A DNA stretch of 64,000 nt from Acidobacteriota bacterium (lineage in GTDB: Bacteria; Acidobacteriota; Thermoanaerobaculia; Multivoradales; UBA5704). Positions 23,210-58,952 of the stretch are shown here, piece by piece; the stretch's first letter is position 1, and the number at the start of each line of letters is the position of its first letter. The stretch spans positions 6,940 to 70,939 of the forward strand of contig JBDTZG010000028.1 in NCBI GenBank assembly GCA_040005235.1. The letters are read 5' to 3'. The notes below the pieces were generated by a model. That model was given only the letters and a program-made list of their open reading frames with translations. It had not been told where the DNA came from and searched no databases. A program made the translations under genes and the position numbers.

Positions 23210-23249
23210 CCACGGGCTCCTGGTTTAATTCTTGAAGGGCGAATTTCAA

Positions 23250-23331
23250 GGGCCGAAGGCCCATCCAATAATAGCCTAGGGCAACGCCCTAGGTTCCCGG
23301 TTCGCGCCCACCCCAAAAGGGCTGAAGGCCC
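23250..23331. repeat. REP-like hairpin cluster (3' side of the RAYT gene)
   Basis: GGGCCGAAGGCCC (23250-23262), CCTAGGGCAACGCCCTAGG (23275-23293), GGGCTGAAGGCCC (23319-23331). Confidence 0.65.
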
Positions 23332-26870: not shown

Positions 26871-27356
26871 ATGACCTCGACCCTGCGCACCGGTGCGATT
26901 GGCGCCATGCTTGACGAATACGATCGAGCTGCGGCGGAGCTGTACCGCCTGATCGAAAGCCTTCCGGAAGCGGACTATCTGCGGATTGACCCCAAGGTCA
27001 CCGACGAAGACGGCCGGTCCGTCCAGACGATCATGTCTCACGTCGTGGGCGCCGGATACAGCTACGCCTTCTACATCCGCCAAGCGCTCGGGATGGAAGC
27101 CGCGCGGCCCGCCCGCCCGCTGTTGTCTCAAACCGAGGTGCTCTCCGGTTTCCAGGCGATGCTCGCCCACACCGCCCAATCGTTGGAGGGTCGGTGGGAG
27201 ATGCCCTACGAAGAAATGGAGAGCATCGCGATCCAATCCCGGTGGGGGCCGACCTACAACCTCGAACAGATGCTGGAGCACGCGATCGTCCACATCCTGC
27301 GGCACCGCCGGCAGATCGAGAAGATGGGGTTGGGGGCGGCGGCGCCAAAGGCGTGA
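26871..27356 (+). CDS. DinB-family protein
   Basis: RBS GAGGAGA lies before ATG 26871. SHVVGAGYSY...LEHAIVHILRHRRQIEKM. Confidence 0.65.
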   Translation: MTSTLRTGAIGAMLDEYDRAAAELYRLIESLPEADYLRIDPKVTDEDGRSVQTIMSHVVGAGYSYAFYIRQALGMEAARPARPLLSQTEVLSGFQAMLAHTAQSLEGRWEMPYEEMESIAIQSRWGPTYNLEQMLEHAIVHILRHRRQIEKMGLGAAAPKA

Positions 27357-27393: not shown

Positions 27394-28071
27394 ATGTCAC
27401 CGTCCAACTTCCCTGCCACCGGTTTCGCACTCGTTCCGGAGGTCTTCTCCGCTGCGGAGTGCGAAACGCTCGCCGCGCTTGCACAGCCCTCGGATGGCGC
27501 TTCCCGAGGAACCCGCAGCCTCCTCCAGCAGCCGTGGTGCGCAGCGCTGGCGGAGCGCCTCCGGGCGCACCCGGTGCTGTCGGCTCTGATCCCGGCTGAT
27601 CTCGCGGCCGTTCAGTGTACATACTTCGAGAAATCGGCCGCGCGCAATTGGCTGGTTCCGTTCCACCAAGACTTGAGTATTCCGGTGGCCGAACGGGTCG
27701 AGGCTCCAGGGCTTCGGGGCTGGTCTAAGAAGGAGGGTGGCCTGTTCGTTCAGCCGCCTGTTACGCTTCTGGAGCAGATGCTCGCGGTTCGGCTCCATCT
27801 CGATGCGTGCTCGGAGAACGATGGTCCGCTGCGGGTCGTTCCGGGTTCTCACCTGGAGGGTCGCCTCGAACCGGAAGGGGCTGCGCGCGCACGGGCGCAC
27901 GGAACGGAAGTCGCGTGTATCGCGGACGCGGGCGCGGCGGTCGTTCTCCGGCCTCTTCTCCTACACGCATCCTCGAAGGCCACCGGCGAGAGTCGTCGTC
28001 GCGTGCTGCATTTCGTCTTTGGCCCCCGCGAGCTGCCGTTTGGCCTCCGTTGGCCGATTTCCACGCCGTAA
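27394..28071 (+). CDS. phytanoyl-CoA dioxygenase (PhyH) family Fe(II)/2OG oxygenase
   Basis: WLVPFHQDLSIPV (HxD), LRVVPGSHLEG and VLRPLLLHASS. Confidence 0.75.
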   Translation: MSPSNFPATGFALVPEVFSAAECETLAALAQPSDGASRGTRSLLQQPWCAALAERLRAHPVLSALIPADLAAVQCTYFEKSAARNWLVPFHQDLSIPVAERVEAPGLRGWSKKEGGLFVQPPVTLLEQMLAVRLHLDACSENDGPLRVVPGSHLEGRLEPEGAARARAHGTEVACIADAGAAVVLRPLLLHASSKATGESRRRVLHFVFGPRELPFGLRWPISTP

Positions 28072-28149
28072 CGTCGCTCTCGGCGACCGCAGTTGCTGAT
28101 GGCTCGGCGCGCTGCAAACTCCGGCGCGGATAGCGGCTATTCGGCGTTT

Positions 28150-28452
28150 TTACGCGGCTCCGCGCTCCAAAGCGGGAGAACAGCTAACGTCAACTCTGAC
28201 TCCGGCGCGAGCGAGCATGTCGACCAGGGAGTCGCTGCTAAAGAGATCGACTCGTCCTCGCACCAGGTCGCTGATCCGAGGTTGGGTGACGCCGAACAAC
28301 TGCGCGGCCTTGATCTGCGTCAGCTTGCGATCCTGCATCAGCTTGCGAATCGTGAACATCAACGACGAGCGTAATTCGAGATGCGCCGCTTCCTCCGCTC
28401 CGAAGCCTAGATCCAAGAAAACGTTGCCGCTCGAAGGTGTGATTTCACTCAT
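28150..28452 (-). CDS. XRE-family HTH protein, HigA/COG5606-like antitoxin (orphan)
   Basis: SSGNVFLDLGF...KLTQIKAAQLFGVTQPRISDLVRGRVDLFSSDSLVDMLARAGVRVDV. No toxin-sized ORF lies upstream. Confidence 0.7.
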   Translation of the reverse strand: MSEITPSSGNVFLDLGFGAEEAAHLELRSSLMFTIRKLMQDRKLTQIKAAQLFGVTQPRISDLVRGRVDLFSSDSLVDMLARAGVRVDVSCSPALERGAA

Positions 28453-28737
28453 GCGGAGCGGCTTCATTGGCAGAGAACTATACAAGCTTCAGTATGCCGC
28501 ACCAAGCGAGGCGCCACGCGCGCTTCAAAGATAACCGGCAAGTCCACATCCTGCGGCACCGTCGGCAGGTCGAGAAGATAGCCGCTGTCTCCACGCCGTA
28601 ACGTCGCTCTCGGCGACCGCAGTTGCTGATGCCTCGGCGGGCTGCGAAATCCGGTGCGGAAAGCGGCTATCCGGCGCGTAAAGCCGATTGCGGAGCCCGA
28701 TTGCCGGATTCGGGAGTTGAACCGCGTGTTTTGCGAC

Positions 28738-28997
28738 GGCAAGCCGCGTTTCGGGACCGCATTCGCGGTTCTGGGACCGCAAGCCGCTTCCTGAGACGGA
28801 TAGCCGCTTCCTGGGACTTCTCGCCGCTTTCTGGGACGGATAGCCGCTTCCTGGGACTTCTCGCCGCTTCCTGGGACGGATAGCCGCTTCCTGGGACCTC
28901 TCTCCGCTTCCTGGGACGGATAGCCGCTTCCTGGGACTTCAAGCCGCTTCCTGGGACGGATAGCGACTTCCTGGGACAGATCGCGGAGTTTCGGGAC
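28738..28997. repeat. tandem 20-bp minisatellite, about 13 units, with a 40-bp super-period
   Basis: The units keep an exact 20-bp phase. A 15-bp core GCCGCTTCCTGGGAC is preceded by alternating 5-mers GGATA / TTCTC (for example 28798, 28818, 28838, 28858, 28878). Confidence 0.9.
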
Positions 28998-29059
28998 GGC
29001 TACGCGCTTTCCGCGGCGCGGAGCCGACTGCGGCGACTTTTCTCCGTGATTCCTGACCG

Positions 29060-30850
29060 TTAACTCGCCACGGCCAATTCTGCAGGCCGGGGGAGCGCGG
29101 GAACCATCGTCGGCCGCCGTTCGCCGATCTGCTGGCGCCACATGGCGAAGTAGAGACCTTTCAAGGCGAGCAGCTCGTCATGGCGGCCCGATTCGACGAT
29201 CCGGCCGTGTTCCAGGACGTGGATGCGGTCGGCGTGCATGATGGTCGAAAGCCGGTGGGCGATCAGGATCGTGATGACCTGGCTCGACGCCACCTCGCGG
29301 ATCGTGTCGGTGATCTCTTCCTCGGTCAGCGAATCGAGCGACGAGGTCGCCTCGTCGAACACCAGCAGGCGCGGTCGGCGGAGAAGAGCGCGAGCGATCG
29401 ACAGCCGCTGCTTTTCGCCGCCGGAGACTTTGACGCCCCCTTCGCCGATCACCGTGTCGAGACCGCGGTCGGCGCGCGCGAGCAGGCTTTCGCAGGCCGC
29501 TTTGTGGAGGACTTCCAGGCACTCGTCGTCGGTCGCATCCGGATTCACGAACAGCAGATTCTCGCGGATCGATCCGGAGAACAGCTGGGTGTCCTGGGTG
29601 ACGAAGCCGATCTGTACCCGCAGTTCGTCGAGGTCGATCTCTTCGCCCGACTTGCCGTTGTAGAGGACCCGTCCCCGGCCCGGGGAGTAGAGACCGACCA
29701 GCAGCTTGACCAGCGTCGTCTTGCCCGAGCCGGAAGGGCCGACGAATGCAGCGGTCTCTCCCCGGTGCAGCGAGAACGAGATGTCGGAGAGCGCCGGGGC
29801 GGACGCGGTCTGGTGGGTGAAGCCGACGTTTTCGAAGTCGAGAGTGGTGAGCTGGCCCAAAGGAAGCGGATTCACCGGCTTCGCCTCGATCGGGGTGGCG
29901 AGCACGGTCTGGAACATCTCGAGCGACGCTTCCGTCTCGCGGTAGGTGTTGATCACCGTCCCCAGCTCCTGGAGCGGGCCGAAGATGAAGAAGGAGTAGA
30001 TGAACAGCGAGAAGAACTGCCCGACCGTGATCTGCTGGGTAAAGATCAGGTAGAGCATCAAGAACAGGATTGAGGTCCGCATCGCGTTGACCAGCGTCCC
30101 CTGGATGAAGCTCAACAGGCGGAGCGATTTAACCTTCTTGAGCTCCAGCTGGAGGATCTTCGCGGTCGTCGCATTCAGCCGGCCGATCTCTTGCCGCGCG
30201 AGGCCCAGGCTTTTGACCAGCTCGATGTTGCGCAGCGATTCGGTGGTCGCCCCGGCGAGCGCCGTAGTCTCGGCGACGATCACCTTCTGGATCTTCTTGA
30301 TCCGTTTCGACAGCACCGAACTCAAGATCCCGATCAACGGCACGGTGAGCAGATAGACCGGCGCGATGATCCAGTGCACGCTCGCGGCGTAGATCATCAC
30401 GAAGACCACGCCGACTAGCGTCGTGAACAACAGGTTGACCGCGATCGCGATCAGCTTTTCCACGTCCGACCGCACCTTCTGGAGACGTCCGAGCGTCTCG
30501 CCGCTCCGCTGGTCTTCAAACAGCGAGTAAGGCAGCTCCAGCGAATGGCGGACGCCGTCCGAATAGAGATCGGCACCGACCCGCTGAGTGACGACGTTGA
30601 CGAAATAGTCCTGGAAGTTCTTGGCCACGCGCGACACGAACGCCACACCGACCGCCGCGGCGAGCAGGAGCGACACGCCGCGGAAGAACTGCTCGGTGGT
30701 GTACTCGGAGTAACGAGTGGCGTATTCGTCGATGACGTGACGAAAAATCAGGGGATCGAGCAGAGAGAAGACCTGATTGATCGCCGCCAGCACCAGGGCG
30801 AGCACCACCAGACCCCAGTAGCGACGGAGGTAGGAGTAGAGAAGTTTCAT
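29060..30850 (-). CDS. ABC exporter, fused TMD-NBD (MsbA/type I exporter-like)
   Basis: Six-helix TMD, Walker A GPSGSGKTT, signature VSGGEKQRLSIARAL and Walker B LLVFDEATSSLD. Confidence 0.9.
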   Translation of the reverse strand: MKLLYSYLRRYWGLVVLALVLAAINQVFSLLDPLIFRHVIDEYATRYSEYTTEQFFRGVSLLLAAAVGVAFVSRVAKNFQDYFVNVVTQRVGADLYSDGVRHSLELPYSLFEDQRSGETLGRLQKVRSDVEKLIAIAVNLLFTTLVGVVFVMIYAASVHWIIAPVYLLTVPLIGILSSVLSKRIKKIQKVIVAETTALAGATTESLRNIELVKSLGLARQEIGRLNATTAKILQLELKKVKSLRLLSFIQGTLVNAMRTSILFLMLYLIFTQQITVGQFFSLFIYSFFIFGPLQELGTVINTYRETEASLEMFQTVLATPIEAKPVNPLPLGQLTTLDFENVGFTHQTASAPALSDISFSLHRGETAAFVGPSGSGKTTLVKLLVGLYSPGRGRVLYNGKSGEEIDLDELRVQIGFVTQDTQLFSGSIRENLLFVNPDATDDECLEVLHKAACESLLARADRGLDTVIGEGGVKVSGGEKQRLSIARALLRRPRLLVFDEATSSLDSLTEEEITDTIREVASSQVITILIAHRLSTIMHADRIHVLEHGRIVESGRHDELLALKGLYFAMWRQQIGERRPTMVPALPRPAELAVAS

Positions 30851-30952: not shown

Positions 30953-31561
30953 TCAGGCGAGGTCATTCTCGCCTCCGATCACGAAGAGCTTCAGCTGGGA
31001 GGCGATGCGCGCGACAAAGGAGTCGTTGCGGGCGCGCTTGCCGCGCCATTCCGCGCGCGTCATCACGGTGGGATGGACCGGCCGGGAGAGGTGAGCCTCC
31101 GTAGGTTCGAGGGCGGCAAAGACATCGGCGTATTCTAGGTCGTCGCTCAATACCAGAAGGTCGAGATCGCTGTGAGCCCGGTCGCTCCCCTTCGCGAGTG
31201 AGCCATAGACGAAGGCTGCCGCAATGCGACGGCTGAGCGGTTCGAGGGCGGCGCGGATCGGCTCGACGATTCCGACGGTCTTTTCGACCAAGCCACGCAG
31301 CTCCGGGAAGATCGGCGACTTCGGGTCGGCCTGGTAGTACTTTTGATTTCCCGCGTGGGTGGCGAGGACGAGGCCGCTCGCTTCGAGTCTTTGGAGCTGA
31401 CGATGCACGGCGCCGGTGCCGCTGTCGGCGAGGCGAATCAGCTCGGCGCTCTGGAATCGCCTTTCGGGTTGTCCGAAGAGAAGGCCCAACACCCGCTGTT
31501 GAACCGGGGTGAACAGCGCTGCGGCGAGCCCGCTATCGGTGTTTTCTACGACCGTTCCCAT
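30953..31561 (-). CDS. winged-helix (ArsR-like) + nucleotidyltransferase (MNT-like) fusion protein
   Basis: ATG 31561 (MGTVVENTD). wHTH region FQSAELIRLADSGTGAVHRQLQRLEASGLV, then FVYGSLAKGSDRAHSDLDLLVL (GS...DxD). Confidence 0.65.
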   Translation of the reverse strand: MGTVVENTDSGLAAALFTPVQQRVLGLLFGQPERRFQSAELIRLADSGTGAVHRQLQRLEASGLVLATHAGNQKYYQADPKSPIFPELRGLVEKTVGIVEPIRAALEPLSRRIAAAFVYGSLAKGSDRAHSDLDLLVLSDDLEYADVFAALEPTEAHLSRPVHPTVMTRAEWRGKRARNDSFVARIASQLKLFVIGGENDLA

Positions 31562-31700
31562 AATGGGAATGATCCTACCCGAATTGGGAACGATTGTCGT
31601 CCCGCGACTCAACAACCGACACCCGCCCGCTTCCGGCCCCAAGGGGGTTAAGGCCGGGGGGCGGACGGGTGTCGCACTGCGGAACCTACGTTTCCTGCGG

Positions 31701-58619: not shown

Positions 58620-58952
58620 CTACTGGCCGCAGCGACCCTCTGGGTCGACGACGCAACCCGCGTCGCGAAGGATCGGCGCCGGGGCACTCGACGAACCGCA
58701 GCGGCCGTAGGGATCGAGGCTGCAGCCCACGTCGCTGAGGATCGGCACCGGGGCGCTCGACGGGCCGCGGCCGCCGTGGGGGTCGAGGCTGCAGCCCTCC
58801 TCCTCCCAGAGGGCCGAAAGAAACGACCAGCCGCGGGCGAACAGGTCGGGGAGGGTGCGATCGAGCGGCAAGGCGCCGGCCGGGAAGGCACTGAGGAGGA
58901 AGAGGGCTAGCAGAGCGACGGCGAGGGCGAGGTGACGCTTCGGTTGGGGCAT
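58620..58952 (-). CDS. small secreted Cys-loop repeat peptide (pepB, 110 aa)
   Basis: Signal peptide MPQPKRHLALAVALLALFLLSAFPAGA, then FLSALW and three modules: GCSLDPHGGRGPSS, GCSLDPYGRCGSS and the terminal GCVVDPEGRCGQ. The modules are encoded by 69-bp tandem DNA repeats. Confidence 0.7.
   Translation of the reverse strand: MPQPKRHLALAVALLALFLLSAFPAGALPLDRTLPDLFARGWSFLSALWEEEGCSLDPHGGRGPSSAPVPILSDVGCSLDPYGRCGSSSAPAPILRDAGCVVDPEGRCGQ

Follow-up and report, generated by a model that had tools for sequence, protein, structure and literature searches.

The window, that is, the whole stretch of 64,000 nucleotides of Acidobacteriota DNA analysed here, carries a phase-exact array of 20-bp direct repeats in a chromosomal neighbourhood that includes FtsZ, FtsA and an ABC exporter (Table 1). 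As the first-pass annotation had recognized, the array lies between an antitoxin-like gene, of the HTH_37/XRE type, and the exporter gene; no toxin ORF is present beside the antitoxin-like gene. Between ftsZ and the exporter gene (30953-31642, reverse strand), an NTP_transf_2/Polbeta nucleotidyltransferase with a weak N-terminal match to a MarR-like winged helix is encoded. A 143-aa partner gene follows the nucleotidyltransferase gene in L019-L021 and is missing in the window, and L012 and L016 have neither gene (L001-L028 denote comparison loci retrieved from relatives and metagenomes, and W the copy in the window). An Rfam match to the Acido-Lenti-1 sRNA (23249-23293, reverse strand; 39.6 bits vs. 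a gathering score of 37) agrees with the Acidobacteriota origin of the window.

The centre of the array consists of ten near-perfect 20-bp units, each composed of the 15-nt core GCCGCTTCCTGGGAC and a 5-nt linker, whose cores (starting at 28783 to 28963) match GCCGCTTCCTGGGAC at 13-15 of 15 positions. The flanking units at 28743 and 28763 on the left and at 28983 on the right retain the phase and the GGGAC ending, with only 9-11 of 15 core positions matched. Along the ten units, the linkers read GGATA, TTCTC, GGATA, TTCTC, GGATA, CTCTC, GGATA, TTCAA, GGATA and AGATC, so that GGATA alternates with TTCTC-like linkers (TTCTC/CTCTC/TTCAA) and a 40-bp super-repeat results. Tandem repeat finding (TRF) on the tract returned a period of 20 with 10.6 copies and 76% matches, and a period of 40 with 4.9 copies, 92% matches and a score of 334. 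The claim of about 13 20-mers in exact register (28738-28997, counted linker-first), with alternating GGATA and TTCTC units and degenerate edges, was thereby borne out: all 13 are in 20-bp phase. Weaker in-phase units widen the periodic tract to approximately 28640-29040, i.e., to about 400 bp rather than 260 bp. The array is far beyond chance: allowing up to 3 mismatches, the core was matched 17 times in 64 kb compared to 6.0 +/- 2.5 times in shuffled sequence, none of 100 shuffles reached 17 matches, and 10 of the 17 are the phased units. Likewise, the identity at lag 20 peaks at 0.78 in the array (window mean 0.267, sd 0.052), which is the sole region of the 64 kb above 3.5 sd. A second tandem repeat of the window, at 58653-58797, has a 69-bp unit in 2.1 copies (84% matches, TRF score 206).

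Table 1. Positions of the array, its parts and its neighbours in the window, followed by the arrays at the putative ancestral site in comparison loci.
Feature	Position	Strand	Remarks
HTH_37/XRE-type antitoxin-like gene	28150..28452	-	Pfam E=1.6e-22
Spurious 225-aa ORF	28464..29141	-	runs through the array into both neighbouring genes
Relic of the original 3' end of a DinB-family gene	28542..28601	+	...HILRHRRQVEKIAAVSTP, then stop
87-nt direct repeat, second copy	28590..28676	+	overlaps the outer head
Head	28640..28742	+	degenerate units, 20-bp phase kept
Two boundary units, GCCGCGTTTCGGGAC-CGCAT-TCGCGGTTCTGGGAC-CGCAA	28743..28782	+	head/array junction motif
Homogenised array centre	28783..28982	+	ten 20-bp units; 40-bp super-repeat specific to the W copy
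Tail	28983..29042	+	three degenerate in-phase units; ends 17 nt before the stop codon of the ABC exporter gene
ABC exporter gene (ABC_membrane + ABC_tran)	29060..30850	-	3' end faces the array tail
Putative ancestral-site array	L023, L026		core GCGACTTCCYGGGAC
Putative ancestral-site array	L024		older, heterogeneous
Diverged array at the putative ancestral site	L028 3441-3640		unit GAAGTGACTTCCCAGNNCAG; each unit a perfect 6-bp-stem hairpin

Position-specific conservation among the decayed units amounts to a broad, weak signal with no sharp motif, and several degenerate units of head and tail are mini-hairpins with 5-bp stems, e.g., GCCGC-TTGCC-GCGGC. One unit junction recurs inverted in the head, as AAGCGGCTATCCG within 28661-28687, the complement of ...CGGATAGCCGCTT... 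in the array. The tail is orthologous to that of L005 and has no significant similarity to the tails of other copies. In the rest of the window, GGGAC was tested as an avoided, restriction-type site and found to be unremarkable (observed/expected 0.85).

A scar of two parts, a duplicate of the DinB 3' end and a copy of an 87-nt direct repeat, separates the antitoxin-like gene from the array. The first copy of this repeat (28060-28146; 92% identical) follows a PhyH gene, and the repeat provides the last codons and the stop for two ORFs. Together with a 38-nt direct repeat of 95% identity (27288-27325 and 28542-28579), it brackets the PhyH and antitoxin-like genes, the second copies being the DinB 3' relic. 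At L005, the orthologous locus in the closest relative, La6_metabat2.203, the relic sequence is the true end of the DinB gene, which still terminates in ...IAAVSTP (stop), and PhyH is absent. The PhyH/antitoxin region looks like an insertion with local duplication, and the DinB relic shows that the array was originally located directly downstream of DinB, convergent with the exporter gene; the antitoxin-like cassette (with PhyH in the W genome) was probably inserted later than the array. The HTH_37 gene is 96.8% identical in nucleotide sequence between the window (28147-28454) and L005 (1714-2022), compared to 86-93% for the flanks of the two loci, and the duplicated fragment beside it in L005 is another one, consisting of the peptidase M1 3' end and the DinB 5' end. 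This suggests that the HTH_37 gene is a recently moved cassette.

L005 also provides the closest comparison for the array itself; the ABC exporter proteins of the two loci are 98% identical. Ten good units in the window compare with 14 in L005, and both counts, taken from short-read data, may be marginally inaccurate. Edge units are conserved, the interiors differ, and the difference of 4 units, or 80 nt, is not a multiple of 3. Array interiors differ between L003 and L008 as well. In six further lineages, in which the exporter is 92-95% identical, no array was found at the site. Some of the array-less sites have an ECF sigma-factor gene 34 bp after the exporter gene, others a convergent peptidase M1 gene across a spacer of 110-835 bp with unrelated sequence, and SMAG_U11143 lacks the array at this site and has arrays elsewhere. 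From its absence in these lineages, SMAG_U11143 included, it follows that the copy in the window is probably a recent acquisition of the W/La6 lineage. The exporter/peptidase spacers of L016 (4786-5000) and L019 (4783-4892) hold long palindromic hairpins of G/C runs, e.g., CCTTCCCCCACAAGGGGGGAAGG, with a REP-like look, and a small ORF for a Cys-rich peptide is found near the exporter gene in L021 (6275-6445, reverse strand).

GTDB was scanned, with one genome per species, for two perfect cores 20 bp apart, which yielded arrays on 5 contigs of the Thermoanaerobaculia MAG La6_metabat2.203, JBBSBW01, and on 1 contig of SMAG_U11143, DATMZU01; a slightly degenerate core pattern retrieved five further metagenome contigs. 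Loci beyond those of La6_metabat2.203 thus came from a second MAG and one metagenome. Every match is a phase-exact array with decayed in-phase units on both sides and 8-14 good units, numbers that may be imprecise, as all comparison sequences are short-read metagenome assemblies. At least 5-6 arrays were found per genome. Judged by sequence comparison, the array in the window, the sole such tract in its 64 kb, belongs to a repeat family that a small group of Thermoanaerobaculia (Acidobacteriota) carries in multiple, dispersed copies. The suggestion of a simple VNTR in the first-pass annotation was right with respect to the change in copy number and wrong with respect to a lone, locus-specific repeat.

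In 90 good units pooled from nine arrays, core positions carry 1.2-2.0 bits and linker positions 0.5-1.1 bits, GGATA being the commonest linker (33 units). Linker variants and the higher-order period differ from array to array, the latter being 80 bp in L001, for example, and the 40-bp alternation is particular to the window copy. L010 (62-200) contains a run of variant units (TTCCCTTCCTAGGAC-GTATA and similar) beside two canonical units, which shows a second unit subtype within one array. The heads are homologous across loci and have in common the junction motif GCCGCGTTTCGGGAC-CGNNT-TCGCGGTTCYGGGAC; the form found in the window is conserved in paralogous and ancestral-site copies (L003, L006, L007, L008, L023, and L026). 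The tails are homologous for some copies and common only within subfamilies.

The surroundings of the copies vary, and statistics on context are weak, with about seven independent loci and six ancestral-site lineages compared. Arrays lie between convergent genes in the L003 group, between divergent genes in L001 and L006, after a gene for a TonB-dependent receptor in L002, and beside the dapD 3' end in L009. In L004 (5469-5808) and L011 (2657-2956), the array is located between hsdR and hsdM of a type I restriction-modification system, in an orientation relative to its neighbours that is opposite to that of most other copies. The genes downstream differ at every locus (none, hsdM, a DUF4351 protein, a membrane protein), and the tail faces the 3' end of a reverse-strand gene in W/L005, the L003 group, L009 and L028. 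Nothing that would explain the dispersal, be it a transposase, a terminal inverted repeat or a target duplication, was found, and no RAYT-type gene was seen. The inverted pairs that flank some copies are weak (24-31 nt, 74-79% complementary), and the ends of homology vary between copies; a MITE was rejected on these grounds, no target-site duplication having been seen. A type III toxin-antitoxin (ToxI-like) array was rejected as well, as no conserved toxin gene lies downstream.

At L003, the array lies between a cation-efflux (CDF) gene and a gene for a 125-aa XRE-like protein. Among CDF orthologues with 84-92% protein identity, a 20-bp periodic tract is found downstream of the CDF gene in every lineage examined, while a CDF relative at 71% identity has neither array nor 125-aa gene. 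The CDF/125-aa site therefore appears to be the ancestral home of the array family. At this site, the 20-nt period and CTTCCYRG persist, and the rest of the unit drifts in concert; in L028, which is without the 125-aa gene, the GGGAC element is lost and the unit forms a hairpin with the stem ACTTCC/GGAAGT and a 7-nt loop. The 125-aa gene abuts the array tail in L003, L008 (frameshifted there), L024 (5151-5528) and L026, and the protein is 79-83% identical across these loci, with the N-terminal 80 residues nearly invariant. In L001 and L006, head and tail contain relics of the 3' ends of the CDF and 125-aa genes, which implies that both are probably segmental copies of an L003-type locus; in the W tail, a relic of the 125-aa gene was sought and is absent (z<=2.2). 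Just upstream of the head of the ancestral-site array, small ORFs for Cys-rich peptides are present as well (L023 5257-5442, L024 4356-4541, and also L007 and L008). Together with the peptide of L021, these measure 56-61 aa and have CxxC-rich C-termini, and one of the set has a sub-threshold match to a class I lanthipeptide leader (E=0.0087). A single array-associated HTH family comprising the HTH_37 proteins of W and L023 and the 125-aa protein of L003 was considered and rejected: one pair resembles each other over 18 residues, the other not at all.

We favour, at slightly better than even chances, the explanation that a non-coding interspersed minisatellite, specific to the clade, has given rise to the array in the window as a secondary copy of young evolutionary age. 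Multiple family members occur at dispersed sites, orthologous copies differ in unit number and in their set of linkers, close relatives have gained and lost copies, and in some copies fragments of the genes beside the ancestral copy are preserved. A typical copy would comprise a decayed 20-nt head with the junction motif, 8-14 homogenised units, and a decayed tail. Slipped-strand mispairing or unequal recombination would alter the number of units in blocks of 1, 2 or 4, and such block changes would yield the 40-bp super-repeat of the window as well as the 80-bp one of L001. The self-complementary octamer of the core, TCCYRGGA, may favour slippage or recombination, and hence changes in unit number, because two adjacent forward-strand units fold into a hairpin of -13.6 kcal/mol through it (UCCUGGGA). 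New copies would be generated when a segment is copied, or recombines ectopically, into intergenic DNA that tolerates it, in most cases next to the 3' end of a gene, and the copy in the window would serve neither the antitoxin-like gene nor the exporter in any dedicated way. An iteron- or operator-like function on behalf of the two neighbours is not supported, given the heterogeneous contexts (convergent, divergent, hsdR-hsdM) and the six close relatives without an array; a trans-acting factor may still bind the core. Something sequence-specific, be it a binding factor or an amplification bias, would nevertheless be needed to hold the core more constant than the linker.

However, pure drift and local homogenisation would not predict a core that is conserved so far above the linker, and the ancestral array has persisted at 84-92% protein identity in the face of the deletion bias of bacteria, a hint that selection maintains it. 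Since the 20-bp period and a short motif persist across species-level divergence, and do so beside a small HTH gene, the family may be more than junk.

It is possible, though unlikely, that a sequence-specific protein uses the array as its platform on the DNA, the leading candidate being the 125-aa XRE-like HTH protein. Dimers would occupy TCCYRGGA, a pseudo-palindrome that recurs at intervals of two helical turns, and would line up cooperatively along a single face of the DNA, and secondary copies such as that in the window would act as extra platforms or titration sinks. The conservation of the core above the linker is consistent with this, as are the 8-bp pseudo-palindrome, whose symmetry is kept or improved in the common variants TCCCGGGA and TCCCAGGA, the strict 20-bp period in all lineages, drifted units included, and the position of the ancestral array next to the conserved 125-aa gene. 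Moreover, the only lineage without this gene, L028, is the one that has lost the GGGAC part, this being one data point only. Assembly on 20-bp tandem repeats is reported for RHH proteins, e.g., ParR of pSK41. However, the array is located at the 3' end of the HTH gene and not at a promoter, and convergent genes flank several of the copies. The HTH gene carries a frameshift in L008, is reduced to relics in L001 and L006 and is absent from the 64-kb window, and the window site is array-less in close relatives. The 125-aa protein matches no Pfam or NCBIfam family, so that even its DNA binding is putative. The more specific proposal that the arrays are dedicated multi-site nucleoprotein platforms for this protein, copied by one clade to at least 6 further chromosomal sites, is more doubtful still. 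If true, it would describe a chromosomal iteron- or centromere-like or titration system of a kind undescribed in Acidobacteriota. Should a protein assemble on the arrays, chromosomal array binding of a new type would be established for a phylum that has been little studied.

Lower again we rate the chance that the array acts as a repeat-motif RNA, read through from the tail-side gene as reverse-strand (GUCCCAGGAAGCGGCUAUCC)n with GGAAG or CAGGAAG every 20 nt. Such an RNA could be a CsrB/Rsm-like protein sponge or present Shine-Dalgarno-like motifs in a 3' UTR; alternatively, tandem hairpins could form in an RNA from the forward strand. GGAAG (CTTCC on the forward strand) is the most persistent part of the unit in all lineages, L028 included, and one GGA motif about every 20 nt on one strand is a feature that the array has in common with the CsrB/RsmZ sponge RNAs. 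The density of the motif matches that of CsrB. The orientation of the tail towards the 3' ends of reverse-strand genes would fit read-through, and on the forward strand the pairing of adjacent units and the perfect hairpins of L028 point in the same direction, the frequent core variants TCCCGGGA, TTCTGGGA, TCCTGGGG and TCCCAGGA remaining pairable when G-U pairs are included. In contrast to the sponge RNAs, the array shows no significant Rfam match and probably no stable presentation of the motif in hairpins. Rfam searches at gathering and at E<=10 returned nothing relevant, and the best relevant score, for CsrB on the reverse strand, was 10.1 bits (E=2.2) vs. a gathering score of 71. Scans for sigma-70 promoters and intrinsic terminators at four loci revealed nothing associated with the arrays. 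Folding z-scores of the whole tract are unremarkable (-0.9 on the forward and -2.0 on the reverse strand), and an alignment fold of seven heads showed no covariation, the covariation term being positive, i.e., unfavourable. Hairpin registers vary with unit type, so that a single conserved structure is absent. The reverse-strand fold is weak. In the frequent variant TTTCTG, the reverse strand reads GAA in place of GGA, and GAA is present in 10 of 90 units overall. The opposite orientation of the copies between hsdR and hsdM argues against an RNA, too.

The remaining readings can be regarded as effectively excluded. Replication-origin iterons or a plasmid- or phage-type centromere are very improbable: iterons and RHH/ParR centromeres (parC arrays) are likewise phase-exact direct repeats spaced about two helical turns apart, a geometry on which the first-pass annotation had drawn and which suits the cooperative assembly of protein along a single face, but the arrays described here are chromosomal, multi-copy (at least 5 in a single genome), often situated between convergent genes, and without a rep or par gene nearby. 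In addition, blastn of the window tract against plasmid and phage collections and a search of viral contigs with the core pattern gave no match. A simple VNTR confined to this locus, generated there by slippage and unrelated to any other repeat, would account for the variable copy number of orthologues, but is just as improbable, being refuted by the same core and head junction motif at many unlinked loci in several genomes. Least probable of all is a protein repeat, for which the reverse strand, which in every copy has one frame or more without a stop along the array, would give a 20-aa repeat, ...SQEAAIRPRKRLSVPGSGYP..., in whichever frame: the 225-aa ORF has no homologue at E<=0.001 among 5.8 billion proteins and overlaps two genuine genes, orthologues differ by 80 nt, and the open stretches across other copies begin and end at unrelated places. 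The earlier dismissal of this ORF as an artefact was therefore correct in its conclusion. The argument that 20 is not a multiple of three was insufficient alone, because three units add up to 60 nt and all reverse-strand frames are open.

The minisatellite family is of practical value as a marker of genome plasticity and as a target for strain typing. It also calls for caution: an ORF predicted over such an array is spurious, and the arrays may be points at which metagenome assemblies break or collapse. No comparable interspersed repeat family for Thermoanaerobaculia was found in Rfam and the literature searched, and a search of the literature for a described equivalent, in Acidobacteria or among dispersed bacterial minisatellites, gave no direct match.

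Among known repeats, a CRISPR array was rejected, because the unit is a 15-nt core with a 5-nt linker from a small recurring set instead of a repeat of at least 23 nt with unique spacers. REP/BIME elements are similar in being GC-rich, short, intergenic and near gene 3' ends, but BIMEs alternate inverted REPs, whereas the arrays are strictly direct and phase-exact. The closest parallels are to MIRU and BOX elements, with which the family has in common unlinked copies, conserved heads, polymorphic number or presence, and a non-coding, intergenic nature. MIRU-VNTR loci are intergenic minisatellite arrays of strain-variable copy number, some of which extend over the termini of adjacent genes; their units measure 46-101 bp, often with small ORFs coupled to flanking genes. 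The likeness lies in the scattered, intergenic minisatellites, and the 87-nt repeat of the window likewise provides gene-end codons. In contrast to MIRU, the units of the family are 20 bp with a 15-nt conserved core, and a coding signal is absent.

The BOX element of Streptococcus pneumoniae is, similar to the family described here, a dispersed intergenic composite in which conserved end modules surround a variable tandem module. BOX has the structure boxA-(boxB)n-boxC, is enriched between convergent genes, and varies in length between strains via slippage or unequal crossover, the variation increasing with the number of boxB modules (PMC3049150). Genomes tolerate both types of element mostly where they follow a gene or separate two convergent ones. 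They have no sequence similarity and belong to different phyla, the unit measures 20 nt compared to 45 nt in BOX, and at least 5-6 copies per genome were found for the family compared to more than 100 for BOX. In contrast to BOX, moreover, the end modules of the family are decayed units, and one locus, the putatively ancestral one, is conserved across species-level divergence.
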